Shown here piece by piece: positions 2,943 to 19,776 of a stretch of DNA of 64,000 nt. Under the pieces are notes generated by a model. It was not told the origin of the DNA and searched no databases. It worked only from the letters and a program-made list of their open reading frames with translations. The stretch comes from a virus. The DNA is taken from IMG/VR virus record IMGVR_UViG_3300022872_000001, positions 64,001 to 128,000 of that record. One strand, written 5' to 3'. The position numbers and the translations under genes were made by a program. How positions within the stretch are numbered: the stretch's first letter is position 1; every line of letters begins with the position of its first letter.

Positions 2943-2943
2943 C

Positions 2944-4254: not shown

Positions 4255-4654
4255 GAAGGATAAGAGTAAAAATAAGAGTAAAAATAAGAGTAAGGATAAA
4301 ACCAAGAAGAAACCGTTGGTACGCACCTTAGGTGGTTTGGTATTTTATCCGAAACTTAAGAAAACCCGCACTGATATTTTTTATTCAGTTGCAGAATGGA
4401 TAGAAGCTAAGAAGCCAGACAATGTTTATATCCATGATGCCCTGGAAACCTTGAATACAGCGAACATTGAAATAGTTGACGCTGTGTGTCACAGAGGTGT
4501 TTATACGAAAACCATAGTTCGACCTATGGTTACAACCACAGTAAATAAGATAGGATTACGCAATTTGCATCCGCGACAAAGTCCTACAATGGTTAAAACT
4601 ATGGCCGGCATTCACGTTGCTGACGTGCGCGACCATCACAAAATGGTCTACTAA
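4217..4654 (+). CDS. hypothetical protein with Lys-rich N-terminus
   Basis: 145-aa ORF with a KNKS tandem repeat at the N-terminus. Confidence 0.55.
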   Translation: MKNSTKLVSSKNKKDKSKNKSKNKSKDKTKKKPLVRTLGGLVFYPKLKKTRTDIFYSVAEWIEAKKPDNVYIHDALETLNTANIEIVDAVCHRGVYTKTIVRPMVTTTVNKIGLRNLHPRQSPTMVKTMAGIHVADVRDHHKMVY

Positions 4655-4667
4655 CAAGGAATTATTT

Positions 4668-5330
4668 ATGCAATATTCAAAAGATGTGGAAGTAGGAATG
4701 GCTGTTCATGAACACCTAATTGCGCGTGGTGTTGAGACTCCCTTCACTTTCAAAGAGCCTAATAAGGCCTCGATTGAACAGCATTTCATCGGCATCATGC
4801 AGGAGATCGGTTTGGACCTAGCAGATGATTCATTGATCGAAACACCAAAACGATTAGCCAAGCTATACACTACCGAGTTCTGTTCTGGTTTAGACTATCG
4901 TAATTTCCCCAAAGCTACCGTGGTAGAAAACAAGATGTGCTATGACGAAATGGTTCTGGAACGGAATGTACAGGTATACAGTCTCTGTGAACATCATTTT
5001 TTACCTGTGGTAGGCGGAGCCTTCGTGGCTTACATTCCGAATGAAAAGGTAATCGGTCTGTCCAAGCTTAATCGTATCGTTGACTTCTTTAGCCGTCGTC
5101 CTCAGATTCAGGAACGGTTAACTGCGCAGATTCAGGAGACCCTTAAGTTTCTTTTGGAAACGGATAACGTTGCGGTAGTCATTCAAGCTGAACATATGTG
5201 CGTTAAGCTGCGTGGTGTTGAGGATGCTTGCAGTGACACTACAACATCGAAATTGAGCGGCACATTCAAGACCAATCCTACTACGCGGGCTGAATTCTTC
5301 TCCCTGTGCAAAGGCTTGTTGCCTGTATGA
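4668..5330 (+). CDS. folE: GTP cyclohydrolase I
   Basis: ETPKRLAK, SLCEHHFLP, GLSKLNRIV...RRPQIQERLT, HMCVKLRGV motifs; start set to ATG 4668 (aagga RBS). Confidence 0.95.
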   Translation: MQYSKDVEVGMAVHEHLIARGVETPFTFKEPNKASIEQHFIGIMQEIGLDLADDSLIETPKRLAKLYTTEFCSGLDYRNFPKATVVENKMCYDEMVLERNVQVYSLCEHHFLPVVGGAFVAYIPNEKVIGLSKLNRIVDFFSRRPQIQERLTAQIQETLKFLLETDNVAVVIQAEHMCVKLRGVEDACSDTTTSKLSGTFKTNPTTRAEFFSLCKGLLPV

Positions 5331-5356
5331 TATCACCTGATTCCGAAGGACACATA

Positions 5357-5821
5357 ATGGCCATCCTTGAATTAACAAATAAGCCTATCATTGCAGATAT
5401 CGACGGATGCTGTTTAGATCCTGAGGAACGTATTCCTAACGCTGAGGCTAAGGATTGGGAAGGATACCATGCATTATGGCGCACAGACACGCCAATTATG
5501 GCGGGTTGCCTTACCTACGCCTTGTTCATCGAGTCAGGTCACAATCTGATTTTCGTTACAGCCCGGGAAGAAAAAGCCAGGGAATACACTCTGTTCCAAC
5601 TTCGGAAGTTCATATCACCTAACGTAACCTCTGATATGTTGTTGATGCGGCCCAATGACAGCTATTCCATTCCGGATGTGGTATTGAAACCCCAATTGGT
5701 TCAGGACGCAGGTTACAAAATTGAGGATATCTTGATGGTATTCGAAGACCGAACTGTAATGGTTAATGAGTGGCGACGATTGGGTGTCATCTGTTATCAA
5801 ACCGCACAACGCGACGATTAA
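5357..5821 (+). CDS. HAD-superfamily phosphatase (PseT/PNKP 3'-phosphatase-like)
   Basis: DIDG motif I, VTARE motif II, LMRP, FEDR; RBS before ATG 5357. Confidence 0.75.
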   Translation: MAILELTNKPIIADIDGCCLDPEERIPNAEAKDWEGYHALWRTDTPIMAGCLTYALFIESGHNLIFVTAREEKAREYTLFQLRKFISPNVTSDMLLMRPNDSYSIPDVVLKPQLVQDAGYKIEDILMVFEDRTVMVNEWRRLGVICYQTAQRDD

Positions 5822-5828
5822 GGCTCCT

Positions 5829-6089
5829 ATGGCTTTCTCTCTGTTTCCCAAATTGGTATATGGAATACAAAAGGTAACGTTTCATCCTAAATCAGCTATA
5901 GATTATATACTGGGTGATACGGTATACGTAATTATGGATCCCTTGGAACCTAGCATGGGAGCAGAGGGAATAATAACCCTAGTTTATCCGGATGACACAT
6001 ATCAGGTTGTTCTCACAGGTTTGAATGTTGGCGTATCTTTGCGCGTAAATAAGAAACAGTTAATAAATAAAAGGTTTGAAAATGAGTAA
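5829..6089 (+). CDS. hypothetical protein (possible SH3/KOW-like C-terminus)
   Basis: ORF fills the gap between HAD and queE; beta-rich pattern only. Confidence 0.5.
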   Translation: MAFSLFPKLVYGIQKVTFHPKSAIDYILGDTVYVIMDPLEPSMGAEGIITLVYPDDTYQVVLTGLNVGVSLRVNKKQLINKRFENE

Positions 6090-6888
6090 AGTTATCCCTA
6101 TAGTTTCTGTCATTCAAAATGTGGATCGTAACGTAAAAGCTAAGGAATATGATGCATTAGATGGCGATCTTCTCGTCACTTCCATATTCCGCACCATTCA
6201 AGGCGAAGGTCCCTACGCAGGTTACCCTTCTGTCTTCGTTCGGTTAGCTGGTTGCAACTTTGGTTCCAAGGATTCCAATTGCCAGTTTTGTGATTCTTTT
6301 TTCGGATTCGATCAAGGCCGGCGTGTTTCTTCCTTGCAGCTACTTGAAGAACTTACCAGTCTGCCAGGTTATAACTCTCAGGATGTGTTGGTCGTCACAG
6401 GCGGCGAGCCAACGCTGCAACTCGCACTTATCGAATTGTTGGTTAAGGCTAACCTGTATTTCGCGCATGTGCAGATTGAAACGAATGGTACTCAGTCTGG
6501 ATTCTTTAAGCGCGTAGAAGAATTGAATGTCCAGCGTCAGTTCATGACCGTGGTGAGCCCTAAGGCATCCTACCTAGCTAAGCGCTATTCGGAGCTTTCT
6601 CCTATCGTTATGTGGAACGCTACCTGTTTGAAGTTTGTTGTTGATTCCGATCCTGAAAGTCCACATCATATCGTGCCTCAATGGGCTTTTGATTCGCAGA
6701 AGAAGATCTACGTTTCTCCTATGGCAGTGTATCTCAAACCTTATGCTGGTGAAGTATCCAGCATCTGGGAGGACGGTTTGATCGATAAGGCAGCTACTGA
6801 AAAGAACTACAAATATGCGGCTGAGTACGCAATGAAACATAATGTCCTACTGTCGGTACAGACACATTTATTCCTGGGGTTGGCATAA
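6082..6888 (+). CDS. queE: 7-carboxy-7-deazaguanine synthase (radical SAM)
   Basis: IFRTIQGEGPYAGYPSVFVRLAGCN...CQFCDS, VVTGGEPTLQ, IETNG, SVQTH. Confidence 0.93.
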   Translation: MSKVIPIVSVIQNVDRNVKAKEYDALDGDLLVTSIFRTIQGEGPYAGYPSVFVRLAGCNFGSKDSNCQFCDSFFGFDQGRRVSSLQLLEELTSLPGYNSQDVLVVTGGEPTLQLALIELLVKANLYFAHVQIETNGTQSGFFKRVEELNVQRQFMTVVSPKASYLAKRYSELSPIVMWNATCLKFVVDSDPESPHHIVPQWAFDSQKKIYVSPMAVYLKPYAGEVSSIWEDGLIDKAATEKNYKYAAEYAMKHNVLLSVQTHLFLGLA

Positions 6889-7133
6889 TGGATGACGATC
6901 AACTTCTTCCGTACATAGATACGGTAGCACCTACTCATGAGCGCTTGAGCTGTACGGATACCTCGCCGTGCAACTCGCGCTATGCACCTGATGATTTTGG
7001 TGGTTGTTATCGGTGCACCTTGCTTGCAGCACGTAGGCAAGGTATAGAGGAGGCTGCGCAGTTTATTCTTACTCATCCAAAGAAGAATTCGCCCCGCGCC
7101 AAGTTGGTTAAAGACCTATTGGAGATACCATGA
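6888..7133 (+). CDS. hypothetical protein with Cys cluster
   Basis: Stop-start overlap with queE; CTDxxPC...CYRC. Confidence 0.6.
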   Translation: MDDDQLLPYIDTVAPTHERLSCTDTSPCNSRYAPDDFGGCYRCTLLAARRQGIEEAAQFILTHPKKNSPRAKLVKDLLEIP

Positions 7134-7236
7134 CCTCTGCTTCTAATCCGGTAATAATAAGGTGCACAATACCAAGGGTGACCGCAAGGCTAAAGCTAAA
7201 CAAGCAAAACAGTCACGCAAGAGGAATAGAAAATGA
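7130..7236 (+). pseudogene. frameshifted small basic protein (paralog of 7233 and 7478 ORFs)
   Basis: ggag RBS and ATG at 7130; the shifted frame from 7150 reads GNNKVHNTKGDRKAKAKQAKQSRKRNRK* and ends in an ATGA overlap with the next gene. Confidence 0.5.
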
Positions 7237-7481
7237 GTCCATTAGATGACGACGATCCTTTAATTACCCAGCCTACTGTAATTGATGAATCTTCTATTCT
7301 CCCAATATATCGTGCACCTACGGTAGATGATGAAATGGGTGGTATAGACGGGCGTAACCATAACGGTTTCTTTAAGAACTACGTAGAGCGCATTGGTAAT
7401 AATAAAGCACATCGCCCTATAAAGAAACGTAGGACTTTAGCCAAGCTGGTAAAGCAATCGCGCAGGAGGAATAGAAAATGA
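7233..7481 (+). CDS. small protein with basic C-terminal tail
   Basis: Acidic N-terminus, then GNNK...KQSRRRNRK*; ATGA overlaps. Confidence 0.6.
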   Translation: MSPLDDDDPLITQPTVIDESSILPIYRAPTVDDEMGGIDGRNHNGFFKNYVERIGNNKAHRPIKKRRTLAKLVKQSRRRNRK

Positions 7482-7708
7482 ATACCCCAAGATATAACTT
7501 TATGTTGGCAGCCATAGCTGCATTAGGTACTGTAGGTACACCCGTAGAGCGTAAGGAATATCAGCCACCTAGTGAACCTAGTGCGGTTTACAAAGGCCCT
7601 GAAGGTGTTTGTCGCTGCGGTAACAACAAGAAATTCAAAACCTTTGATGAGCGTAAGGCGAAGAAGGCTGCAAAGAAGAGTCGGCAGCGTAATCGGAGAA
7701 TGAAATGA
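7478..7708 (+). CDS. small basic protein with degenerate SEC-C-like motif
   Basis: CRCGNNKKFK resembles the SEC-C CxCGSGKKYK; basic tail KKSRQRNRR. Confidence 0.55.
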   Translation: MNTPRYNFMLAAIAALGTVGTPVERKEYQPPSEPSAVYKGPEGVCRCGNNKKFKTFDERKAKKAAKKSRQRNRRMK

Positions 7709-8232
7709 AACGCTGGAAAAGAACGGATGGATACGTTCGCTATTATAAACCGGACATATCAAGATCAAAACGCCGCAAGCACTATCAATCCAAAGGTCGT
7801 GGTTACAATGTACGTAGATCGGATCGCCCTCGTTATACCTCGAAGGCGTATAAGGAATACGTAGCTTTCTATTCGGCTGAATACCGTGGTTACACATTAG
7901 GTGAACTAATGGCAACCGAGCTTTACGAAGAATCCAATAGGCCTGGTTTTATGAGTCGCATCCTAGGGCTTAAGAATGTTATGACTCCCGAAACTCCTGA
8001 AGAGAAGGAACGTCGTATACGGAGAGAGATTTATAAGGAACACACAAAGCCGTATGATCGCCGTAAGAGTTATAAACTGACCGATGAAATGCGGGAAACC
8101 TACAAACGTAAGAAATCGGAAGCCGATGCGAAGTCTCCAGGAATGTTTCCTATACTCTCTTCTTGGTTAACAAATTCAACAGGTATGCGTCTGGAAGAAA
8201 TTCTACGGGACTCTTTCAAAAATTACCCATAA
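7705..8232 (+). CDS. hypothetical basic protein
   Basis: 175-aa ORF, ATGA overlap, R/K/Y-rich. Confidence 0.6.
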   Translation: MKRWKRTDGYVRYYKPDISRSKRRKHYQSKGRGYNVRRSDRPRYTSKAYKEYVAFYSAEYRGYTLGELMATELYEESNRPGFMSRILGLKNVMTPETPEEKERRIRREIYKEHTKPYDRRKSYKLTDEMRETYKRKKSEADAKSPGMFPILSSWLTNSTGMRLEEILRDSFKNYP

Positions 8233-8245
8233 CTAAGGAATTATT

Positions 8246-8596
8246 ATGACTCAAATTTATAAAGACCACAACGGCGTTACTGTCACAGCTATTCCAGCGT
8301 CTGTTAAGATTGAAAATCTTCCTGTACAAGAGGGGCACGTCTACACTGTGGATTCAGGGATTCGCCAACAAGTTATTCACTTTCAGTCTGGTCCTGTCCC
8401 TACAAGTGGTGTCAACGGTTTGACCAACGAAGCTTTGCTAACCATCCTTATTCACCGTACAAAGATTCTTGATGCCAAATTCGGATGCGATGAGAACAAA
8501 CGTGCTATCCAACATATGGAAGAAGCCCTCGTAAACCTTGAGGTACGCACAGCACGTCGTATGGTTAGAGGTGTCGAAGGTAAGGAAGTTACATGA
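8246..8596 (+). CDS. tad1: Tad1-like cyclic-nucleotide sponge (anti-Thoeris/CBASS family)
   Basis: IHFQSGP...GVNGLTNEALLTILIHR...F.CDENKRAIQHMEEAL..L..R..RR..RGVEG aligns by eye with the conserved Tad1 C-terminal hairpin (FQxG...G...DLLxIxxDRL...F...EN..A..H.EEAL..M..R..DR..R.V.G). Confidence 0.8.
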   Translation: MTQIYKDHNGVTVTAIPASVKIENLPVQEGHVYTVDSGIRQQVIHFQSGPVPTSGVNGLTNEALLTILIHRTKILDAKFGCDENKRAIQHMEEALVNLEVRTARRMVRGVEGKEVT

Positions 8597-8712
8597 TTAA
8601 ATGTGAGGTTATAACTCCCTCTTTATCCTCTGCTGTAGCTGATTGGTATCAAAGGGCTGCCAATTCTCTAGAAGTTTCCCGTTTCCTATCTGGTTCCTCA
8701 TCTGTCTTTTGA
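8593..8712 (+). CDS. possible 39-aa small protein
   Basis: ATGA overlap with the preceding stop; below the ORF-track cutoff; no motif. Confidence 0.3.
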   Translation: MIKCEVITPSLSSAVADWYQRAANSLEVSRFLSGSSSVF

Positions 8713-8749
8713 CCTACCTCCGGACAGCACCTGGACTAAAACATTTATA

Positions 8750-9109
8750 ATGGATACGTATCAGGAGGGACTTGCTATTCTAAGTACAGATAGAGCTTTC
8801 CCAGGTACAGTAAGCATTTGTCTTCATGTATTGCCTAGCACCCGTCAGAAATTGACCGCAGGTTCTCTAATAGCATTCTCTCATGACTATGCGAGATTCA
8901 ATCTTGCTTGTAAATACTTGGAATGGACGGTACATGGTACCAACGATAAGTGTCTATCTCTGTCCTTGATTAAAGCCACTCAGTGGGGACAGCGTGATGA
9001 CGTAATGTGGGATTCTGAATTAGGTGAGAGTGTTGCTGCTCATTCCTTCCGTTATAAATTAAAAGATAAGAGGTTATACCGTGGAAAAAGAAGTAATCAA
9101 GTTTCTTGA
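8750..9109 (+). CDS. hypothetical protein
   Basis: 119-aa ORF in a co-directional gene run. Confidence 0.55.
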   Translation: MDTYQEGLAILSTDRAFPGTVSICLHVLPSTRQKLTAGSLIAFSHDYARFNLACKYLEWTVHGTNDKCLSLSLIKATQWGQRDDVMWDSELGESVAAHSFRYKLKDKRLYRGKRSNQVS

Positions 9110-9524
9110 AACTGCCTGCAAACGTGCAGATTACAATCCTGCATTAACCATTTTGGTGGTGACTGCGCGGGAAGATGTTTTTGATGACATTCGCAAAGCA
9201 GTGCACAACATCTGTTTAACCGCCCTCAAGGCATCCTGGGCCTCGGATAACGGAGACTTTGATGAATTCTCCGTAGAACCTGTATCCACAGTTTGGCTTA
9301 CTCCCAATGATGAGTTCACACCGCGCGGGCACTCGTCAATTGCAGCCATTGTTGATGCTGAAACTAAACCTACTCCAGGTACGGTAAAAGCGATTGCCCT
9401 TTCCTTGGCCGATAAATCTCGTTCCTTGAAACTTGATGTTAAATCGATGATTCTGGAGGCTTCCTTATTTGGAGGCTACAGTAGAAACGATTGGACATCC
9501 GATGATCCTAAGGAATCAGCATGA
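9081..9524 (+). CDS. hypothetical protein
   Basis: 147-aa ORF with GTG start in a co-directional run. Confidence 0.55.
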   Translation: MEKEVIKFLETACKRADYNPALTILVVTAREDVFDDIRKAVHNICLTALKASWASDNGDFDEFSVEPVSTVWLTPNDEFTPRGHSSIAAIVDAETKPTPGTVKAIALSLADKSRSLKLDVKSMILEASLFGGYSRNDWTSDDPKESA

Positions 9525-9736
9525 GTTACGGTGAAGGTCCCGTAATATACAGCCTTCCTAAACTTATCTTAGATAAGGAATATCAGGAACAGATTACTTC
9601 CACCTCTGTGTATTTGAACGGTAGGTGGGTACCTGCTCGCTGCACCCAACGTATCCCCGGTTTCTTCGGAAAACTTAAACTTGCCTATGGTGTATTCACA
9701 GGTAAATACGATGTTCTGGATTGGGACGGTCAGTAA
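9521..9736 (+). CDS. hypothetical protein
   Basis: aagga RBS; overlapping stop/start with neighbours. Confidence 0.6.
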   Translation: MSYGEGPVIYSLPKLILDKEYQEQITSTSVYLNGRWVPARCTQRIPGFFGKLKLAYGVFTGKYDVLDWDGQ

Positions 9737-9975
9737 TGGACAATAAGACACGGAAGAAACTAGCTAAACAGGTCATCAAGAATGTGTTTGGTGAATTACG
9801 GAATGATAATCCAAAAGAAGTAATTGACGCATTGGAAGATGCACATAAGGATAATGTCAAACTTATTAAGGATAACTCAAGACTTGAAAAGGAGAATGCT
9901 ATCTTAGCTGCTGAAAACCGTGAGCTGAAAACTAAACTTGGCTTACCTGTACCTACTTTGTCGGAACACGATTAA
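9736..9975 (+). CDS. hypothetical coiled-coil protein
   Basis: Heptad pattern NVKLIKDNSRLEKENAILAAENRELK; start at the TAATG overlap. Confidence 0.6.
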   Translation: MDNKTRKKLAKQVIKNVFGELRNDNPKEVIDALEDAHKDNVKLIKDNSRLEKENAILAAENRELKTKLGLPVPTLSEHD

Positions 9976-9984
9976 GGAGTTATC

Positions 9985-10305
9985 ATGGCTGATTTCTTCA
10001 TTACTGAATCACAGGTTATTGGTAAGGTTCATGCTCTACGTAGTACTTGTAAACAGCATCATTTGAATCTTAAATACGGCTTTGTTATTGACGCTTTGTC
10101 TCGTGCCGTGGGCTGTAAGAGCCATGCTGATTTTCTAACGACAATCCGAAACCACAAACCAGTTAAGGCTTTCAGTTTATCTGTATTCATAGAACGCCTA
10201 TCTAGTCTAACCTCTCTTGAATTTGCAATTAAGGTAGAGGCAGTTCTTATTGATACGCAGTACGCAGAGAATTTTAATAACCATATCAAAGAAGCCGAGG
10301 AATAA
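9985..10305 (+). CDS. hypothetical protein
   Basis: aaggag RBS; 106-aa helical ORF. Confidence 0.65.
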   Translation: MADFFITESQVIGKVHALRSTCKQHHLNLKYGFVIDALSRAVGCKSHADFLTTIRNHKPVKAFSLSVFIERLSSLTSLEFAIKVEAVLIDTQYAENFNNHIKEAEE

Positions 10306-10456
10306 ACATATACGTGCTACAGATGCGGCCTCTATGAACAAAGCACATGTTCATCCTGTAATTCGAATTAATGCGCTGGATGATTTTCAGATCGAAACAA
10401 TATCGAACATCAATAAGCTTATCAAAAGTCTTAAAGATCAACTCAAGGAAATTAAA

Positions 10457-11134
10457 ATGCCTCAAGAAATTAAAGTTTTAAATCATGGATCCATTCGTTT
10501 GGTAGATCACATGGGTAGTGACCTTTCTGTTGTTAGGTCGGCCCGTGTTAGTTATGATGCTGAATGGCGCGCAGGGGAAGACGCAGGTAAAGATGCAAAA
10601 CTCATTAACTACCTGATGAAAAATCATCATACTTCTCCTTTCGAATCTGTTACCTTTACCTTTGAAGTCAAAGCCCCTATATTTGTGTTTCGCCAGTGGC
10701 ATCGTCATCGCACCTGGTCTTTCAATGAAATCTCTGCGCGTTACTCGGAATTACCGGAAGAGTATTACGTACCTGAGGTGTGCAAGATTACAAGCCAATC
10801 TGTAAATAATAAGCAGCAGCGAACTGAAGAAATTATTGAGTCAGCTATCTATGTAAAAGATCTTATAGATAGACAATGCGCGGGCGCGTTTGCTACCTAT
10901 AAAGAACTACTAGCCAAAGGTTGCCCGCGTGAACTTGCCCGAGGTGTTTTGCCAGTTAATACCTACAGTAAAATGTTTGCCACAATTGATCTGCATAACC
11001 TTCTTGGATTCATTCGTTTGCGTGATCATAGCCATGCCCAATATGAGATTCAGGTATATGCTCAAGCCATGCTGGAACTGATTGAACCTATTGTACCAGA
11101 ATCAATTAAGGCTTTTAAATCAACCTTGGTTTAA
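10457..11134 (+). CDS. thyX: flavin-dependent thymidylate synthase
   Basis: RHRTWSFNEISARY (RHRx7SxR), HHTSPFE, PRELARGVLP, HAQYEI; aagga RBS before ATG 10457 (the frame is open further upstream). Confidence 0.95.
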   Translation: MPQEIKVLNHGSIRLVDHMGSDLSVVRSARVSYDAEWRAGEDAGKDAKLINYLMKNHHTSPFESVTFTFEVKAPIFVFRQWHRHRTWSFNEISARYSELPEEYYVPEVCKITSQSVNNKQQRTEEIIESAIYVKDLIDRQCAGAFATYKELLAKGCPRELARGVLPVNTYSKMFATIDLHNLLGFIRLRDHSHAQYEIQVYAQAMLELIEPIVPESIKAFKSTLV

Positions 11135-11425
11135 GAACGTTATGACCCCCTTAATGGTTCCGATCTACCTCTGGATGAAATGCGCAGTTACCGTCCTGTT
11201 GAATTTTTAATGCCTAAGGACGATGAGGTTTCAGCTCATCTCTATCTAAACCGAATGAACGTGCCACGTTACACGTTAAGCTGTCAACTTTACCAGCGTT
11301 CGATTCACTGAGCGCCTTTTCACAGTAATGTGATTAGCAAACCTTGTTAAACGGGGGATAGCTCACGTAGCCAATCCCGTGCTAACTTTCTAATTAATTG
11401 TAGGTGTACATTTTAGGTATCCAAT

Positions 11426-11454
11426 TTAATATCGTTATTATTTAGCGAGGTTAA
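11426..11454 (+). promoter_or_regulatory. hairpin that would sequester the endonuclease RBS
   Basis: TTAA.TCGTTA-ttatt-TAGCGA.GG.TTAA stem covers the GAGG RBS and ends 2 nt before ATG 11456. Confidence 0.45.
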
Positions 11455-11455
11455 T

Positions 11456-12268
11456 ATGGATATACTATGTGGTGTTTATAAGATAACTAGTAAGGCGACA
11501 AAAAGGTTTTATTACGGAAGTTCTGCTAATATGCGTAAACGTAAGAAAGGTCACTTAAAGGCACTTTCAAACAATAGACATCATAATAGTAGACTACAGG
11601 CAGTGTACAACTCTTACGGGTTACATGACCTATCTTTTACCGTAGTAAAGCTATGTAGTATTACTAGAGCGCGAAAATTAGAGCAACAATACATTACTGA
11701 TAATTGTAAAAATAAGAAAATGCTAAATATAGGCTTAGGCGCCATAGGTGGTGATAACTTAACTAACAATCCAAACCGTAAAACTATAGTTGCGAAAATT
11801 ACTAAAGCTGTGCAGGACCGTATGAATACAATGACCAAGGCAGAACGAGTTGAAGCTTTTGGTAGACAAGGTCCTGCAAATGGTATGTATGGTAAAACTC
11901 ATACAAAAGAAGCTAGAGCAAAAATATCTAAAAACAATACTGGTAAAACTATAGATCATAGTGGTTGGGTTCCAACTTCTGAAAATGTCGCTAACTATCA
12001 AAAGGCAGCAAGACTAAGAGTTGCACAAGAGGATTACGTAAACCCTTTCACAGATAAAGTACACAGTAAGAAGACTTTAAAACATTTGTCTAACCTTGCT
12101 AAAGCTCGGTATGCTTCAGGCATACTTCCAGGTAATACACGCAAAGTTAAGATAGAAGGTAAAGTATATGAAAGTGTTTCTGCTGCAAGCCGAGCAATCG
12201 GCAAAGGTAAACCTACTATCGTATATCGCTTAAAATCTCCTTACTGGGACTACATATATTTAGATTAA
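11456..12268 (+). CDS. intron-encoded GIY-YIG homing endonuclease (I-TevI-like, NUMOD3)
   Basis: GVYKITSKATKRFYYGSS, catalytic R and E positions, NUMOD3-like NGMYGKTHTKEARAKIS, C-terminal HTH-like YESVSAASRAIG. Confidence 0.9.
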   Translation: MDILCGVYKITSKATKRFYYGSSANMRKRKKGHLKALSNNRHHNSRLQAVYNSYGLHDLSFTVVKLCSITRARKLEQQYITDNCKNKKMLNIGLGAIGGDNLTNNPNRKTIVAKITKAVQDRMNTMTKAERVEAFGRQGPANGMYGKTHTKEARAKISKNNTGKTIDHSGWVPTSENVANYQKAARLRVAQEDYVNPFTDKVHSKKTLKHLSNLAKARYASGILPGNTRKVKIEGKVYESVSAASRAIGKGKPTIVYRLKSPYWDYIYLD

Positions 12269-12744
12269 ATGCCTAACGACTATCGAACGCACGTATTAAA
12301 TACGGAAGCTAGTAGAGTAGAGCCAAGTGGCTCGAAGTGCAAGGATTCCTTTAGTTAGGAATGTGATATAGTCTACTCTGCATAGTGATATGCAGCAGCC
12401 TGTAACTGAGGACGACAGGCGGTTATAGTCTAACGAACTATAGCGAATATAATGTCTTGTGATTCCTTCCTCAGCGTTCCGTTCAACATCGCCAGCTATG
12501 CATTGCTAACTGAAATGATGGCACAACAGGTAAACATGGTTGCTGATGAATTTATCTGGACAGGCGGCGACTGCCATATCTACTCCAATCATTACGAACA
12601 GGTGGAAGAACAGTTATCGCGTGAACCATTCCCGTATCCAACATTGAAGCTCAATAAAGCTGCATCAATTTTCGATTATAAATTTGAAGATATTGTTATC
12701 GAGGACTATCAATGTCATCCAGCGATCAAAGCGCCAGTAGCCGT

Positions 12745-13164
12745 ATGACCTCCCTTACTGAATCTAACGCCAACGACTATTTAGTTTGGTCAGACATGGT
12801 TCAGGATTATGATCCTGATTTAACTTGGGAGCGCATAAAGAATGCCTGGAATACGATCCTGTTTAATCCTGACATATACGGATATTTGATAAGGGTGGAC
12901 AATCAGATCGTAGGCTTCGCGCATTTGGTGTACCATACATTCCCATTTGCGGTAGGCACTACGTGTTATTTATCCGATCTCTACGTTAAGCGTGAGTTTC
13001 GACGTAAAGGAATCGCTACCGAAGTTCTTAATCAATTTATTCAAATTGCGAAAGACAGTAAATGGGAAAGGTTATATTGGGTTACTGAACACGGTAACCC
13101 GGCGCGTACTCTATACGACTCAGTTGCAAAGTGTGAGTTTGTGCGCTACCACACAGATTTTTAG
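12745..13164 (+). CDS. GNAT-family acetyltransferase
   Basis: [16 protein letters not shown] acetyl-CoA motif A; N..ARTLYD motif B; start at the ATGA overlap, 12745. Confidence 0.85.
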
Positions 13165-13171
13165 GAACAGT

Positions 13172-13543
13172 ATGGTCACCAAGGAATTCACCATAAGCTT
13201 GGATCTAATCAAAGACATAGGCCGGGGATACAATGACATCCTTACAGAGAGTATAACAATTACCGAAGGTCATCCGGAGGTTATTCGTCACATAGTAAAG
13301 AATGTCGTAAAGGGATATCTTCTAGCTTTGAATGCCAGTAACTTCCTGATTGATCAATTAACGGTTGATACGGCTATTCTTAACGTTGAAGGTGCCCTTG
13401 TCAGTTTCTTGCCTACCTTACTAGATACCATGACCATCCGCATTGTATGTAATAATCCTCCCAATGTTTTGGAGAAGAACCTGCTACGCTTATACGCGTA
13501 TTTTAGCTATGGTGACCAACCTTATGCAATCTATTTCAAATAG
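13172..13543 (+). CDS. hypothetical protein
   Basis: ATG 13172 after an agga RBS, within the longer open frame. Confidence 0.55.
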   Translation: MVTKEFTISLDLIKDIGRGYNDILTESITITEGHPEVIRHIVKNVVKGYLLALNASNFLIDQLTVDTAILNVEGALVSFLPTLLDTMTIRIVCNNPPNVLEKNLLRLYAYFSYGDQPYAIYFK

Positions 13544-13555
13544 GCCTTTTCGAAA

Positions 13556-14437
13556 ATGTTAACCTCTCAGAGAGTAGTTAATCCGAACTCCCTAAAATTT
13601 CATCCGTATGATGATACCGATCTTGTTGAACTGCGCAATCAGGTAATTAGTAGTTCTAAGCTCCTTGTTGATTCTCAATTGTTTAGTGAGGAGCACTCAT
13701 TTGATGATCTTCTGGAAAAGATCTTTAAGTTTAAAGGCTCGACCGATGCGCAGGTACAGGAAAAGGTTGATAAGTTATTTCAGTTTTCAAAATTGCCTTT
13801 CGACCCTTTTGTTATTGAGCATGAGAAGGGATTATTTGTATTAACGAATTCCGATAAGGGCATCAAATTTAAAGCTATCCATTCAGATGGTTCAGTTCAT
13901 CCTTTTGGCGCTTCTTTAGACAGGATTGTTCGGGAGAACAGTAAGCTTTCTCTAAATGCGCACAGTATATGTTCTCCTAGATATGAACTGCATGTTCGTA
14001 ATTCCTATGCAGCTCATATAAATGGTACATTCCAAAAGTGTTCTAAAAACACCGAGGGTGCGCGTTCCTTACACGATTGCGAGGCTCAATGGTCGGTAAT
14101 GTGTCTGGTGCAGGTAATGTACATTCTGATGCTGTTGAATGCTAAGAATGTAGGAACCACCAAGATAAAGCCTTCAAATAAAGAGTCTCAAAATGTTCCT
14201 AAATTCCTGCGCCCAAAATTTGAATATCATATTCTAAATTTGGATAGGCGCGTTAAGGAATTAAAAACATTAATGGATGTACAAAACTATTTTCTACATA
14301 TCCCTTCAGATCGTAGAATGCATATGGTGCGAGGTCATTTCAAATGTTTGAATGGTAATTTACATTGGTGGTCTCCCCACTTGCGCAATAAGACAGCTAA
14401 TGAGTTCCTGGACAAAGATTACAAATTAATTGTATGA
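13556..14437 (+). CDS. hypothetical protein with His/Trp-rich C-terminal motif
   Basis: RMHMVRGHFK...HWWSPHLR near the C-terminus. Confidence 0.7.
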   Translation: MLTSQRVVNPNSLKFHPYDDTDLVELRNQVISSSKLLVDSQLFSEEHSFDDLLEKIFKFKGSTDAQVQEKVDKLFQFSKLPFDPFVIEHEKGLFVLTNSDKGIKFKAIHSDGSVHPFGASLDRIVRENSKLSLNAHSICSPRYELHVRNSYAAHINGTFQKCSKNTEGARSLHDCEAQWSVMCLVQVMYILMLLNAKNVGTTKIKPSNKESQNVPKFLRPKFEYHILNLDRRVKELKTLMDVQNYFLHIPSDRRMHMVRGHFKCLNGNLHWWSPHLRNKTANEFLDKDYKLIV

Positions 14438-14446
14438 AAGATTTTC

Positions 14447-14683
14447 ATGACCTATAAAATCTTTTTCGCCGATACGATAGAAGAACTAGAAGCTATCGTA
14501 AATCAGAAACGCACAGAAGGGTGGAACTACGTAGGTGGTCCTGCTATTGTTCCTTCTCGCGCATTTGCTGTAGGTGCTTTAAAGGATATTAGAGATGACG
14601 TTGTTCTAAACCTTCAAGACTATAGCTATAAATTAACGTTCATGCAAGCCATGGACGATAAACCTATTGAACCTCAAAACTAA
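14447..14683 (+). CDS. DUF1737-like small protein
   Basis: YKI...ELEAIVNQKRTEGWNYVGGP pattern. Confidence 0.55.
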   Translation: MTYKIFFADTIEELEAIVNQKRTEGWNYVGGPAIVPSRAFAVGALKDIRDDVVLNLQDYSYKLTFMQAMDDKPIEPQN

Positions 14684-14693
14684 GGAGTATTAA

Positions 14694-14996
14694 ATGATTA
14701 CAACCGATCAAATTCGAATTATTGAAGTTCTTGATAACAATATCTGGGTGCAGGCTCAGTTGGTTCAAATGGAGGCGGGGGATATTTTCCGTATGACAGA
14801 ACCTGATGGTACACGTCTGACTTGCGCTCTACCTGACGGAAGCACTACCGAATTATTCCAGGCTACTTCTCAGGCACAGATTGGTTGTGAACCGTTCGTT
14901 CTAGGAGGTTTGCCATCTGCACCACCTTCAACAGATCAAGCACCTATTGACGGCCTTTCCTCGGGAGCTGATAATGCCCCTATCTCGGGAAGTTAA
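14694..14996 (+). CDS. hypothetical protein
   Basis: aaggag RBS; weak similarity to 15286..15534. Confidence 0.65.
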   Translation: MITTDQIRIIEVLDNNIWVQAQLVQMEAGDIFRMTEPDGTRLTCALPDGSTTELFQATSQAQIGCEPFVLGGLPSAPPSTDQAPIDGLSSGADNAPISGS

Positions 14997-15258
14997 AATC
15001 TTCTATGCGTTTCTGCTAAAGGAAGATGAAAGTACAAGTTCTTATGTAACCTCTGCAACTGCCACTATTTGCAAGGCAACTCGATTAGCTATAGATGCAA
15101 ATGGTAAGTGCCATGCTTTTAACAAACGTCCAGCCTTTGATGGTAAAGCATGGCAGCCTGCGAATCGTCATAAGGTATTTGTATTTACTCTTCCTAAGCA
15201 GGTTCCTTTCGTAGCTGCCGATACGCAATTCCAGTTTAGGAAGCAGGCTAATAAATGA
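14947..15258 (+). CDS. hypothetical protein
   Basis: ORF in a co-directional run; the true start may be the internal ATG. Confidence 0.5.
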   Translation: MTAFPRELIMPLSREVKIFYAFLLKEDESTSSYVTSATATICKATRLAIDANGKCHAFNKRPAFDGKAWQPANRHKVFVFTLPKQVPFVAADTQFQFRKQANK

Positions 15259-15285
15259 CGCTATCCTGCCTACAGGGATTAAGAT

Positions 15286-15534
15286 ATGAAAATAGAACAG
15301 GTAATCAATGTTGAATGTAAGATTTTCGATACCTGGGTTCCATGCACGTGGAACCAACTGGAGTACGGAGACTTATTCCGTATTAAAGATTCATTTGGCA
15401 TGCCTGTTCTTCACAATGGTAGAGACGAACTAATATTTGTTTCGCAAACAATCATTGTAGACTATCCTAAGTCCGAACGTACACTATGGCACCGTATCAA
15501 ATCCTTCTTTACTCCTAAAACAATTCTCCTTTAA
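15286..15534 (+). CDS. hypothetical protein
   Basis: WVPCTWNQLEYGDLFRI resembles WVQAQLVQMEAGDIFRM of 14694. Confidence 0.6.
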   Translation: MKIEQVINVECKIFDTWVPCTWNQLEYGDLFRIKDSFGMPVLHNGRDELIFVSQTIIVDYPKSERTLWHRIKSFFTPKTILL

Positions 15535-15544
15535 GGATTTTCAA

Positions 15545-16138
15545 ATGGCTGCAAAATTGATTGCCTTCTCCGGTGCGCACTCTACGGGTAAAACGTCTAC
15601 ACTTGATGCTATTAAGGCTGCGAATATATTCGATATCTACGTGGATGACTTCAAGGCTAGTCGGCAAGCTCAGGCAGAACTCGGCATGGAATTATCGGAT
15701 ATCATTGCTGATCCGAAACTGATGCGTGAATTTCAAACACGGATTTTGTATTCCAAATGGGAGCACGAGAAGGAATTGATTAAATCCCGGGAAGGTATCA
15801 TTCTGGTAGATCGTTCTCCAGCTGATATCTACGCGTATACGTATATGTGGAATGAGCAGCATCCAAATTTGACGTGGTTTGAGCCTTATGAGTTACGTCT
15901 CACCGTTATGATTCAGGAATATGCCTTCATTGTTGATTTTCCCATTATCGATGAAGTTCCCTTTGTTGAGGAATCTGGAAGAGCTACCTTGGAAACTCGT
16001 GCCCGGCATTCTCGCCTAACTACAGGATTCCTAAAACTTCGAGCACCCAATTCCCATCACAGGCTGAGCGCTGTATCTATAGACGAAAGAGTCACTGAGA
16101 TTGTTACCTTGGCTAATATCCTTCAAGTTGCAGCTTAA
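15545..16138 (+). CDS. P-loop nucleotide kinase (AAA_28/NadR-like, dNMP-kinase-like)
   Basis: IAFSGAHSTGKTS Walker A; DRSPAD motif. Confidence 0.75.
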   Translation: MAAKLIAFSGAHSTGKTSTLDAIKAANIFDIYVDDFKASRQAQAELGMELSDIIADPKLMREFQTRILYSKWEHEKELIKSREGIILVDRSPADIYAYTYMWNEQHPNLTWFEPYELRLTVMIQEYAFIVDFPIIDEVPFVEESGRATLETRARHSRLTTGFLKLRAPNSHHRLSAVSIDERVTEIVTLANILQVAA

Positions 16139-16141
16139 ATT

Positions 16142-16474
16142 ATGGCTGATCTCCTTCAAGACAAATTCAACGTATTGGATAAACGAGTTAAGGAATTGGA
16201 AGTCCAGCTATCCCTGGCCCGTTCGGAAGTTGTTATGTACCGCAGGCAATTGGGCGATTTATTTCCTATAGACATAACCGTACTAAAGGTGGATTCCCAG
16301 GAGCTCCTGGAGGACATTGAAACCTTGCAGGACGCTTTGAGTAATACTGCGAAGAATATGTACATCGATGCAGGTAATATGGTAGGTCTAATTTCTGGCA
16401 AACATCGTAAGTTTCGTTTCTCCTCGCAACAAGCCAAGATTTTTAACGGCATAGTTATAATGGAAGACCTGTAA
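16142..16474 (+). CDS. hypothetical coiled-coil protein
   Basis: 110-aa ORF with an N-terminal heptad pattern. Confidence 0.6.
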   Translation: MADLLQDKFNVLDKRVKELEVQLSLARSEVVMYRRQLGDLFPIDITVLKVDSQELLEDIETLQDALSNTAKNMYIDAGNMVGLISGKHRKFRFSSQQAKIFNGIVIMEDL

Positions 16475-16511
16475 CAGTCTCAGGTATAAGTTGGCATTCT
16501 AGGAGAATAGA

Positions 16512-16925
16512 TTGGTAAAAGGCACTCTTTTTAATATCAACATGAATCTCTGTTCCAATCTTTTGATGGACATATGCGAGATGATAACGAACACTCGCAG
16601 GAAGATGCTTGTAGAAAAGGCAGTGGAACCGTGGGTCGATGAAATCTTTACCAACATATGTGATGAGTATATCCGAATACTGGCATCCTGCCTACTAAAG
16701 AACATTCCAACGGATATAATCCAAGGTGCCATAGAATCCAAGGTACGCTCTGCTGTTATCCGAACTCTTCTAAAGAATGACATTAAGATTCAGTACGAAA
16801 AGATTGTGGTAGTATGCGATAACTCCTTGATGACAAAACAGGATATAGAGGAGGATTATTATCTGTTCACAGCAGAATTCGCCGCAGGTCCTTCCTACTA
16901 TAGTATCAACTTCCGAAGGAAATAA
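16512..16925 (+). CDS. hypothetical protein
   Basis: TTG start with an aggag RBS at suitable spacing. Confidence 0.55.
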   Translation: MVKGTLFNINMNLCSNLLMDICEMITNTRRKMLVEKAVEPWVDEIFTNICDEYIRILASCLLKNIPTDIIQGAIESKVRSAVIRTLLKNDIKIQYEKIVVVCDNSLMTKQDIEEDYYLFTAEFAAGPSYYSINFRRK

Positions 16926-16943
16926 TGATCCATATAACCTATC

Positions 16944-17378
16944 ATGCCAAAGTCTAAGAACAAACGCAAACAAGGCAGACCGGCCGCACCTCCCCGCATT
17001 CCTATTCTGTTAAGAATTAATCAGGAAACAAATGCAGGTATGAGTGCTCTTATAGGCTACGCAGAATTCACCAAACTAGAGCAGCGTGTACCTGATGAAG
17101 GTACCTGGCATCGTCTAGCCTTGCGCTTGAATATCGGTTCCCGCCTGTCTCTTATTTTCAATGATCCCATAATTAGTGAAGACATGCTGAAAAGTTTGGA
17201 CATGCTAATAAAGGTACATGAACGCTTTACCCGTACAGGCATTATGGTTGCAGGAGATCCTGAACTGCAGGTAATTCACCAAGGCCTCCGGTATGTAGAG
17301 GCTCTGCAGGCTAGGTGTACCGCCCGTGAAATTCAGGAAGCCTACAATTATGTATTAAAGCACGCAGCCACTACGTAG
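16944..17378 (+). CDS. hypothetical protein
   Basis: 144 aa; basic N-terminus MPKSKNKRK. Confidence 0.65.
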   Translation: MPKSKNKRKQGRPAAPPRIPILLRINQETNAGMSALIGYAEFTKLEQRVPDEGTWHRLALRLNIGSRLSLIFNDPIISEDMLKSLDMLIKVHERFTRTGIMVAGDPELQVIHQGLRYVEALQARCTAREIQEAYNYVLKHAATT

Positions 17379-17410
17379 AATTTCATGTGTGATCTACCTA
17401 GGAGTCAATA

Positions 17411-17857
17411 ATGGCAACGAAGAAACCTGCAGTCAAGAATCAAGGGATGACCTTATCCCAATTAGCGGCTCGAACCACCATGGATCGGATTGAAAGATCT
17501 CGATACGTTAAGCTCCTGAAGACCAAAATGGGACATGACGCAAATGGTTATGGTTTCATAGCCGCGCAAACTACGACTACAAAAGTTGTAGACCAATCTG
17601 GGCGTTTGGTACGTCACGTGGGCAGTAAATATATAACGATGGTAACGTTCTTCGATAAACAATTACATTGCCGCGTTTCTTGCTCCTGCGATGATAATCT
17701 GTTTCGATGGGAGGTTGCGAATACCAAACGCAATGCAGCAGAGATTGAATACTCAAATGGCGAACGTCCCAAGGTTACCAATCCCACCATGAATCCCGGA
17801 CTCTGTAAGCACTTATATGCGCTCTATGTCAGTGTGAGATTTAAACTACCTAAATGA
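17411..17857 (+). CDS. SWIM zinc-finger protein
   Basis: CSC...CKHL (CxCxnCxH); ggag RBS. Confidence 0.7.
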   Translation: MATKKPAVKNQGMTLSQLAARTTMDRIERSRYVKLLKTKMGHDANGYGFIAAQTTTTKVVDQSGRLVRHVGSKYITMVTFFDKQLHCRVSCSCDDNLFRWEVANTKRNAAEIEYSNGERPKVTNPTMNPGLCKHLYALYVSVRFKLPK

Positions 17858-17858
17858 G

Positions 17859-18629
17859 TCAAGAAACGTATTCGATGTCAGGAAAGTTCTCTGAGTTTAA
17901 CTGATAGTGCATTGAGCTGCCATTAATTCCCAAATATTTGGCAGCAGAGGTCAGTGTACTAAAAATTTTAGAACCGATCCTGACATTTCTCCCATTCAAT
18001 TCAGTTTGAGCTTTTACCATGCGCTGTTTTGTTTCTTCTGAGAGTTTACGCCCTCTATTGGCTATACTAATCTTTCTACGAGATTCTCTTGACATTACCT
18101 TTAGGCTTGAGCGTTTTCCTATCAAGGCTTTTGTCTCAGCTGAGTGTTTCTTTCCGCGCTTCGCGTTTCCTATGTTTTTTACACCACTCCGGAGTTCTTT
18201 CCATATTCTTCATGAATCTGGACATACGCTTACGCGTCTTTGGTGACATGTTAATTACACCTTCACCACCGTCAGTTAAGTTAGTGAGCGGACCTGTGCC
18301 AAGATCGTAACGACCAATAGTTTTAATTAATTCTTTTTCACGTTTTATAACTTTGGACTTACTCTTTGTAGTAGGTGTGCGTACCACTATCACTTCGTGT
18401 CCTTCTTTCAGTATTTTTCGTATCTTATTGCACTTATGATCCTTGTACACAAAAGAATTTCTATTCGGCGTTGGGCCGCTCGCACATGAATTTCACTCCG
18501 ACTACCTTGACCTAAACCTACGTAGAAAGGTTCGTGGGTAAAATGAGTTTTTGAATCGTATCGAAATTTGGTTTTAGAGGGCTTCCTTGGGTCTAATAGG
18601 GCGTAACAATAATATTGATTTTTAGACAT
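17859..18629 (-). pseudogene. free-standing GIY-YIG-superfamily homing endonuclease with two frameshifts
   Basis: YYCYALLDPR...FYVGLG, then E...I...LTNLTDGGEG, NUMOD3-like GKKHSAETK / GRKLSEETK, and a C-terminal HTH. Frame breaks lie near 18465 (1 nt short) and 18178 (one extra base in an A6 run). Confidence 0.8.
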
Positions 18630-18759: not shown

Positions 18760-19776
18760 ATGTCTCAAAAACCGTACAGCCATAGTTTTGCTTTTGATAA
18801 AATGAAAAGAACCAAGGAAGAGATAACAGGCAATCTTACGAGCGCCCAGTATCTTCAAACCCTGGATCTTTTCATCTGGAATGCATTATCGCCAATAGCC
18901 GCCGAGTGCCCCTCCTTATTCCTGAATTACCTCGCCAAGGTGATTGCCCGTCAATCGCTTAAGGCTTCTGCAAAATATAGCTCCGACGATAGGACCCAAC
19001 TTCCTATCAGGTTATTTAATACCTTAACTTGCCAAGATCCTACGGTAATGATTAAGAATGCTCGGAAGCTTTATATCAACCGCGGTCTATTGCTAGGGTT
19101 CCTAACCCTATTTCAACGCCGCCTCATTTTCTATTCCAAATTGTGTTCAGGTACCAAACTGCCATATTCAGATCTAAACCGTAAGATACTTATTCTCAAC
19201 ATTGAGCGTTCCATAGGATTACGCGAAGGTGGCATGCTTTATCCTGCCTTAATGGAGGTAGAGTTCTGGGAAAAGAAGGCGCGTAACTTTAAGGCAGCTA
19301 TCGTCCAGAAATACACCAGACTAGCCTTGAATCATGCAAAGGGCGCGTATGAGGATTATTCACACGAAGTTGAGCTGAATGATATCGTGCAGATTTATCT
19401 AATTGTCGTTAACCGTGCCATTGATCGATGTGATTCTCGCCAAGGCGTTCTCACCATCTTCCTTACGAATTGGTTTAAATCTGCAAGGTCCGCAGTAGCT
19501 GAAATGGCTAAGGAGCAGAGACATCAATCCTACGAAGCTCTTACCGAGGAGTTAGGTGATTCAATCCATGAAGCTATTGGTGTCACTCTTCCTGACCTCG
19601 AATGGGAACTACAGCAACATATCGCCTATGTATCCAAGAATATTGATAAAACAGGATTGGTGCGTATTGCTTTAGGCATAAATGAATTTATTACCAAACC
19701 TCAGCAGGCTATACTGCACATGATGGCTTTGGAAACAGACCCTGATATGTACGAAACTCAGGAAACTTCCATATAA
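18760..19776 (+). CDS. divergent sigma-70-like transcription factor
   Basis: YTRLALNHAK...LNDIVQ...RAIDRCDSRQG...LTNWFKSA parallels sigma region 2 (NLRLV..IAK...DLIQ...AVDKF...G...ATWWIR). Confidence 0.5.
   Translation: MSQKPYSHSFAFDKMKRTKEEITGNLTSAQYLQTLDLFIWNALSPIAAECPSLFLNYLAKVIARQSLKASAKYSSDDRTQLPIRLFNTLTCQDPTVMIKNARKLYINRGLLLGFLTLFQRRLIFYSKLCSGTKLPYSDLNRKILILNIERSIGLREGGMLYPALMEVEFWEKKARNFKAAIVQKYTRLALNHAKGAYEDYSHEVELNDIVQIYLIVVNRAIDRCDSRQGVLTIFLTNWFKSARSAVAEMAKEQRHQSYEALTEELGDSIHEAIGVTLPDLEWELQQHIAYVSKNIDKTGLVRIALGINEFITKPQQAILHMMALETDPDMYETQETSI

Follow-up and report, generated by a model that had tools for sequence, protein, structure and literature searches.

Thymidylate synthases ThyA and ThyX are described as patchily distributed and, for the most part, mutually exclusive, a pattern shaped by lateral transfer between bacteria, archaea and viruses (Myllykallio 2002; Stern 2010; reviewed in PMC5954106), and the displacement of one of these analogues by the other is normally inferred from presence and absence. 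In phage T4, the td gene of the ThyA family is interrupted by a group I intron with a looped-out endonuclease open reading frame (ORF), and the splicing of this intron in vivo is reported to require that the exon 5' of it be translated (Semrad and Schroeder 1998; Sandegren and Sjoberg 2007; as cited in PMC3984707). Here we analysed a stretch of 64,000 nucleotides (nt), called the window below, which comprises bases 64001-128000 of the IMG/VR record IMGVR_UViG_3300022872_000001, a linear, metagenome-derived sequence of 192,170 bp with a completeness estimate of 82%. In the window a thyX gene is followed, in the same frame, by the remainder of a thyA gene, which still contains a td-like intron and its homing endonuclease gene (Table 1), and the displaced remainder would thus still be attached to the incoming analogue. 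We consider it probable (about 0.78) that this arrangement results from a recent non-orthologous displacement of thyA by thyX through one illegitimate in-frame crossover, which left a dead stump hosting a probably active selfish intron.

The product of thyX covers the whole of PF02511 (1-191/191, 190.9 bits), contains the RHR-x7-S motif in the form RHRTWSFNEIS, and aligns end to end with the ThyX structures PDB 6J61 and 1O26 (residues 2-223, E about 1e-51 to 1e-54). An AAGGA ribosome-binding site lies 5' of the gene, and the C-terminus stops where those of the homologues stop, the gene being of full length. ThyX is therefore presumed, from its sequence, to be the working thymidylate (dTMP) synthase of the phage. 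Its nearest relatives, with 81-82% amino acid identity, are found on viral contigs of 52-88 kb with unrelated flanks, and the nucleotide similarity to other phages is confined to the gene (10454-11119). No meaningful direct or inverted repeats, which would be the signature of a mobile cassette, were found around thyX. As separate observations, nearly all long ThyX homologues (>395 amino acids, P0122-P0241) contain inteins carrying HNH or LAGLIDADG endonucleases, and thyX itself is thus a frequent target of mobile elements, while the thyX of the window is intein-free. In L057 a GIY-YIG endonuclease-like ORF (L057:5066-6001), 26% identical to the enzyme of the window, lies directly 5' of thyX and looks like a free-standing endonuclease. 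In three viral contigs of 42-166 kb (L033, L037 and L045), thyX is found at 6001-6663 with 69-70% identity to that of the window, and it is thus linked to deazaguanine modules in other phages, as folE (58% identical to that of the window) and a QueD-like gene follow directly 3' of it.

The stop codon of thyX (TAA, 11132-11134) is followed without any gap by the exon 1 stump of thyA. The stump consists of a lineage-specific ThyA insert and the sequence LSCQLYQR, its residues closing with ...NVPRYTLSCQLYQR, and it provides the 5' splice site and the upstream exon flank of the intron. A variable insert between FQFY and LSCQLYQR is typical of jumbo-phage ThyA, as seen in gp186 of the Erwinia phage RisingSun, in pEa_SNUABM_11 and in the uncultured contigs L169, L170, L086 and L089. 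The last ~30 residues of the stump can be aligned with the exon 1 tails of L169 (48% identity over 29 amino acids), L170 (53% over 30) and L086 (46% over 35), with E values of 1e-4 to 5e-6, and the significant match is limited to stump residues ~23-55; the exon 1 tails of RisingSun and pEa_SNUABM_11 were included in the alignment as well. Moreover, the heptanucleotide GAACGTT at the junction is common to the window and L169, and the breakpoint probably lies at the thyX stop or within a few codons of it, because the residues ER directly after the stop (11135-11140) align with the conserved ER of LSxEER in the relatives. About 189 of roughly 332 ThyA codons, ~57% of the gene, are missing. A functional ThyA requires the N-terminal two thirds of the protein with the PCH catalytic Cys and the dUMP-binding arginines; these are absent from the record, in which neither a profile search nor tblastn (E<=10) found any other ThyA segment, 5' part or separately encoded 5' exon.

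Exon 2 is free of stops and frameshifts and reaches the end of PF00303 with 136.9 bits, as compared with 138.0 bits for the intact exon 2 of RisingSun. It is most similar to exon 2 of L169 (76% identity). At three of the 54 columns that are at least 90% conserved it deviates from the consensus, and 15 of 118 homologues are as bad, so that it does not stand out in this respect. The C-terminal motifs S-x-D, FLGxPFN and GGDxHxY are present, except that the Gly of FLG is replaced: the sequence reads FLSVPFN where the family has FLGVPFN, and Gly occupies the column of this Ser in all 118 homologues. This suggests that decay of exon 2 has barely begun, and the Gly to Ser change is consistent with a constraint that has just been relaxed. 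A first-pass annotation, made by a model that saw only the letters and their ORFs, had described an in-frame thyA remainder right after the thyX stop, the loss of the ThyA N-terminus and catalytic Cys, a whole C-terminus without frameshift reading LSVPFN in place of LG(V/L)PFN, and a complete-looking group I intron that remained with its endonuclease. These descriptions agree with our results, including those on the intron and its enzyme given below, and positions 169-266 are the only part of the PF00303 profile that is matched in the record. Its statement that thyX displaced the 5' half of thyA stands as regards the displacement and falls short as regards the extent, since more than half of the gene is gone.

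The intron is inserted after the Arg codon of YQR|S, and the same site is used in seven other homologous thyA introns, namely those of L169, L170, RisingSun, Klebsiella phage RCIP0023 (where the site reads TQR), L132, L139 and L162, which are 1028-1159 nt long and each contain a GIY-YIG ORF. The 5' core extends to about 11390 and the 3' core begins at 12266, with the endonuclease ORF looped out in between. Against Rfam RF00028 the intron reaches 22.3 bits (E 0.018), below the gathering score of 50, because the 813-nt ORF splits the model and only the 3' core is seen. The pairing was therefore analysed with RNAalifold on the eight aligned homologous cores after removal of the ORFs. P2, P3, P4, P8, P9, P9.1 and P9.2 are canonically paired throughout in the window, and most helix columns show compensatory changes among the eight homologues (2-5 pair types); the poor score of one helix is due to an alignment slip, as GAGCC/GGCUC pairs perfectly in the window. 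P1 is formed by 11296-11299 with 11312-11315 and includes the U11299-G11312 wobble at the 5' splice site, P7 (GACUAU/AUAGUC) was found by eye and corresponds to GACCA/UGGUC at the same positions in RisingSun, and the terminal nucleotide of the intron is G12454. In addition, the window and L169, whose thyA is intact, have the same 25 nt across the 5' splice site. From these features we infer that the intron has kept every part required for folding and splicing.

The T4 td intron, with which three core blocks share 80-100% identity, resides in the same host gene family, is of the same type, and has its endonuclease ORF looped out at the same place; in both cases the frame of exon 1 meets a stop a few codons inside the intron. 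The two systems differ in that the site in the window lies 21 nt (7 codons) upstream of the T4 site FLG|LPFN, and in that the host gene in the window is truncated and non-functional. The intron of Bacillus phage beta22 presumably occupies the same site, 21 nt upstream of that of T4.

The endonuclease ORF is uninterrupted and preceded by a GAGG ribosome-binding site. Its product has the GIY-YIG domain (PF01541, 27.5 bits against a cut-off of 22.6) and a DNA-binding module made up of PF07460 NUMOD3 (28.6 bits) and PF20987 I-TevI_DNA-bd (30.9 bits), which is the architecture of I-TevI, although the two enzymes are only distantly related (E about 1e-3); no match to the zinc finger of I-TevI was found in it. 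In the alignment to the I-TevI structure 1MK0 the equivalents of the GIY Tyr, the YIG Tyr, R27, H31 and H40 are retained, those of E75 and N90 (LEQQ and LNIG) were read from the sequence beyond the aligned stretch, and residues 203-269 align to 1I3J. The enzyme thus looks intact, with no sign of inactivation. It is 47.5% identical to the enzyme of L169 and 40% identical to that of L170, and a scan of metagenomes with it gave no match above 42% identity.

The junction at 11134 is not an assembly artefact, because it was also obtained by another assembler and from at least two data sets. Contigs were collected through the exact ThyX and endonuclease proteins from two pipelines, Logan and JGI. 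Four other assemblies are 99.95-100% identical across the region, and three of them span the thyX/thyA junction: Logan SRR31153004 covers 10397-11702 and Logan SRR29884476 at least 5456-18268, both with 0 mismatches, and JGI 3300036378 covers 10584-14726 with 2 mismatches. The fourth, JGI 3300036425, matches from 11280 onward with 0 mismatches and confirms only the intron and downstream sequence. The SRA runs might share sites with the JGI samples, and they are counted here as independent assembly rather than as proven independent sampling. The copies differ by only two single-nucleotide polymorphisms, at 14701 and 14712, both outside the locus.

In four syntenic uncultured relatives (L089, L086, L169 and L170) an intact thyA occupies the locus, flanked by the folE/queE block on one side and by the genes for a 148-amino-acid protein and a sigma-like protein on the other. 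The upstream flank common to all four and the window comprises folE, queE and an ORF of 436 amino acids, the downstream flank comprises the 148-amino-acid ORF, the sigma-like gene and the following ORFs, and the flanking proteins are 35-59% identical to those of the window. The first-pass annotation had proposed a non-orthologous replacement with thyX where the 5' part of thyA was, and the intact thyA of these four relatives bears this out. No thyX was found in the whole records of L089, L086 and RisingSun, the three relatives that could be searched whole. The thyA intron is polymorphic in this group, as L169 and L170 contain the same intron with its endonuclease, while L089 and L086 are intronless. 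The pair L170/L089 was considered as a case of recent intron gain or loss and dropped, as they are only about 75% identical in nucleotide sequence.

The intact split thyA genes (L169, L170, RisingSun gp186-188 and phage RCIP0023) have the same intron site and a homologous core, which in L169 is ~72% identical to that of the window in nucleotide sequence on both sides; their endonucleases are 33-47% and their exons 2 49-76% identical to those of the window, and L169 and L170 are also syntenic with it. The difference is that exon 1 is complete in these genes, including the catalytic Cys, and thyX is absent, whereas the window has 55 codons of exon 1 and an abutting thyX. Among the best 80 thyX loci, none has thyA pieces; among the best 80 metagenomic loci of endonuclease homologues, 50 show the order thyA N-terminal part, homing endonuclease, thyA C-terminal part, and none adjoins thyX. 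Thus, the combination of an in-frame analogue, a stump and an intron is rare and not repeated in these about 160 related loci.

The sigma-like protein (18760-19776) is 42-56% identical to proteins of BcepSauron, BcepSaruman and BCSR5, of phiRSL1 and of Motura, whose hosts, by phage name, are Burkholderia for the first three, Ralstonia and Achromobacter, respectively, and on this basis the phage is assigned to the phiRSL1/BcepSauron-like jumbo myophages of Betaproteobacteria as an uncultured member. Megablast of the locus against phages gave no match, and therefore there is no close cultured relative. Within this group, ThyA is found in Motura, and the gene of phiRSL1 belongs to the ThyA family and is dUMP hydroxymethylase-like. 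BcepSauron gp238 (L254:14362-15282) is ThyX-like and lies two genes upstream of the sigma-like gene, and BCSR5 gp48 (L257:7150-8100), also ThyX-like, lies close upstream of it; the two are 49% identical to each other and each 23% identical to the ThyX of the window. Neither ThyA nor dihydrofolate reductase (DHFR) was found in the genomes of BcepSauron and BCSR5. Because the cultured relatives hold either ThyA-family or different ThyX-like genes, it can be read from the gene content that the thymidylate synthase slot has changed its occupant more than once in this phage group, with the same either/or pattern as in thyA/thyX displacement elsewhere. A tree of the sigma-like protein was tried as a means to polarise thyA versus thyX ancestry and was rejected, being star-shaped. 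As a side observation, gp238 and gp48 are annotated as 'thymidylate synthase' and 'hypothetical', give a partial, two-piece match to PF02511, and belong to a divergent ThyX-like family of 306-316 amino acids.

Considering these results, we assume that the ancestor was a phiRSL1/BcepSauron-like jumbo phage with a thyA split after YQR by a td-like intron with a GIY-YIG endonuclease, and that one illegitimate recombination linked the 3' end of thyX to the middle of exon 1 of this gene. The setting might be a mixed infection or captured DNA, with a single crossover as the favoured event, and the partner could be thyX DNA of foreign origin or a co-infecting relative that had thyX in this position; one parent would have contributed the left side, with the ORFan at 9985-10305 and thyX, and the other parent the right side. 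One non-homologous junction would suffice, because the wider flanks are homologous among relatives, and since the cultured relatives have either type of gene in this neighbourhood, an insertion and a crossover between two relatives that differ in this gene are equally likely. The in-frame join may have arisen by chance (one in three) or, more speculatively, from a short T-L match, as ThyX homologues end with ...TTL* and ThyA has ...LTL(K/H)ER. ThyX would now supply dTMP, and the remaining 55 + 97 codons of thyA would be an untranslated stump, which may still be transcribed together with its + strand neighbours, because no promoter or terminator signal stands out. The selfish element is probably still active, because the intron retains its parts for folding and splicing and the endonuclease ORF is intact; the exon stubs are the only homology at its flanks. 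That so little decay is seen suggests that the event is young.

Several points weigh against this displacement or limit it. The first ~22 codons after the TAA have no detectable similarity to ThyA, lying in a hypervariable region, and the exact breakpoint is an estimate. Ribosomes would halt at the TAA, 165 nt before the splice site, and as the T4 td intron needs translation of its exon, splicing may be less efficient here than in intact genes, though the ribozyme looks sound. The GC content of thyX is 41% as compared with 43.6% for the genome, and composition neither dates the event nor proves transfer. The nearest relatives have only ~50-58% protein identity, which places the timing of the event and any selection on the stump beyond reach, and the open frame of 152 codons and the intact endonuclease could reflect selection rather than youth. 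Since the record is incomplete, a second thymidylate synthase may exist elsewhere in the genome. Finally, the argument from DHFR is weak. ThyX, unlike ThyA, does not need recycling by DHFR. The dihydrofolate yielded by ThyA is recycled by this enzyme (PMC5954106). The DHFR gene lies directly after thyA in L169, L170 and L089, whereas a GNAT gene occupies this place in the window, and no DHFR was found in the record of the source phage. However, DHFR is also absent in Motura, phiRSL1 and L086, all three of the ThyA type. The loss of DHFR was therefore downgraded as an argument, and its absence beside ThyX is only mildly supportive of replacement.

The alternative that survives best, though it is unlikely, is that the stump, the intron and the endonuclease are held by selection, the endonuclease cutting the intronless thyA of co-infecting relatives, with interference or homing with co-conversion as the result. 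The exon stubs would then be homology arms, and repair would copy the intron, together with thyX, into the rival genome. The first-pass annotation, too, had suggested that the enzyme could still cut such genes, as a competition weapon or so as to carry thyX along by co-conversion. Co-conversion and marker exclusion have been described (Goodrich-Blair and Shub 1996, as cited in PMC11620839), and an intron endonuclease as a competition weapon is documented in the jumbo phage PhiPA3 (PMC11620839). In the pair PhiPA3 gp210 versus PhiKZ the setting is also that of a jumbo phage whose intron endonuclease could potentially act on intronless co-infecting relatives; the differences are that gp210 is an HNH enzyme in a functional RNA polymerase gene, whereas that of the window is a predicted GIY-YIG enzyme in a dead gene. 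In favour of this reading, no decay is seen in the intron core or in the endonuclease ORF with its catalytic residues, and the open state of both exon stubs would be unlikely to last long under neutrality; the intron polymorphism means that targets exist in the group. On the other hand, the sites of the intronless relatives are identical to the spliced junction at only 26-28 of 45 nt (17-19 differ), the upstream homology is just 165 nt within a hypervariable region, and homology arms need no open frame; all copies being about 100% identical, population evidence speaks neither way. A step further, and slightly more doubtful, is the idea that the intron and its endonuclease, stranded as they are, have been kept because they drive the replacement itself, as a gene drive or as a weapon: a cut in the intact, intronless thyA of a co-infecting relative would be repaired from the genome of this phage, by way of the exon stubs or the conserved flanking genes, and the rival would end up with the thyX-plus-stump allele. 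If true, the replacement of one enzyme by a non-orthologous one would be spread through a phage population by a homing endonuclease.

It is very improbable that the thyA remainder is expressed and functional, either as a ThyX-ThyA' fusion made by read-through of the TAA and splicing or as a fragment of 137-152 amino acids from an internal start (e.g. ATG 11180). The remainder is indeed in the thyX frame and open over 55 + 97 codons, and the GNAT start and the thyA stop overlap in a coupling-like ATGA. The fusion, which the first-pass annotation had already rated as the less likely option, finds no support and is opposed by the ordinary efficient stop formed by TAA followed by G, by the lack of a suppressor tRNA in the record (only tRNA-Leu(UAA) and tRNA-Met are present), and by 120 long ThyX proteins, none of which has PF00303 and whose extra length is due to inteins. 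As for the fragment, no convincing ribosome-binding site precedes ATG 11180 or ATG 12452, and it would lack the N-terminal half of the fold together with the catalytic Cys and would have Ser at the invariant Gly. It is scarcely credible as well that the contig is a chimera near 11134, or that a 5' exon of thyA or the full gene is hidden in the unassembled ~18%: the metagenomic and incomplete nature of the record would allow it, but the junction recurs in the Logan contigs of two SRA runs and in JGI 3300036378 (0-2 mismatches), both flanks are syntenic with the same relatives, and a trans-spliced 5' exon is not needed, because the 5' and 3' halves of the intron are contiguous.

If non-orthologous displacement is accepted, a replacement of the textbook thyA to thyX kind, known from presence and absence, would here be preserved as a physical intermediate, with the incoming analogue joined in frame to the remainder of the outgoing gene, at the locus of a phage group that alternates between the two enzyme types. 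All components belong to known kinds; we have not found the combination described in the literature. The locus also offers a natural test case for mobile introns, as an intact-looking homing endonuclease resides in a gene that would no longer need splicing; should activity or conservation of the element be demonstrated, this would suggest that it is maintained for its own sake or because it helps the phage in competition, and not through constraint on the host gene. In practice, the 98-amino-acid ORF called 'thymidylate synthase' in the window, and the thyA genes called as two ORFs in the relatives, should be annotated as exons or pseudogene parts.

Table 1. Features of the thyX/thyA locus and its upstream neighbours (positions in the window)
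Feature	Position	Strand	Basis or remark
folE	4617-5330	+	7-deazaguanine gene set, 5' of thyX
HAD phosphatase	5' of thyX	+	7-deazaguanine gene set
radical-SAM QueE-like	6076-6888	+	7-deazaguanine gene set
ORF of 116 amino acids	8246-8596	+	faint precomputed match to PF24729 (Acb2/Tad1 hairpin)
ORF of 106 amino acids	9985-10305	+	ORFan directly 5' of thyX
thyX, flavin-dependent thymidylate synthase, 225 amino acids	10457-11134	+	PF02511, ThyX structures, RHR-x7-S
thyA exon 1 stump, 55 open codons	11135-11299	+	thyX frame, right after TAA; exon 1 tail alignments
td-like (IA2-type) group I intron, 1155 nt	11300-12454	+	homologous introns, helices, td core blocks
GIY-YIG homing endonuclease, I-TevI-like, 270 amino acids	11456-12268	+	Pfam, I-TevI structures
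thyA exon 2, 97 codons + stop	12455-12748	+	PF00303 169-266/266
GNAT acetyltransferase	12745-13164	+	PF00583 57.2 bits; directly 3' of the thyA stump

The + strand carries every ORF from about 2900 to 15300. Scans for sigma-70 promoters and terminators at the locus gave hits at chance level only, and the AGTAAATA box of the genome does not occur from 4547 to 15182; the locus thus seems to belong to a long co-directional unit. The GNAT start codon at 12745 overlaps the thyA TGA (ATGA, 12745-12748), and there is an alternative ATG at 12712 with a GAGGA site formed by thyA codons in exon 2 (12698-12714); translation of the GNAT gene may thus rely on sequence within the dead exon. The ORF directly 5' of thyX has a low GC content (38.6%, and 33% at third codon positions) and finds only itself, with no homologue, among 5.8 billion proteins; it may have come in together with thyX. 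The ORF at 8246-8596 could be a candidate anti-CBASS or anti-Thoeris sponge. Downstream, the 148-amino-acid ORF (17411-17857) is intein-free in the window, unlike its homologue in L169 (L169:11255-13054), which has 599 amino acids, the extra length being an intein with a LAGLIDADG endonuclease.

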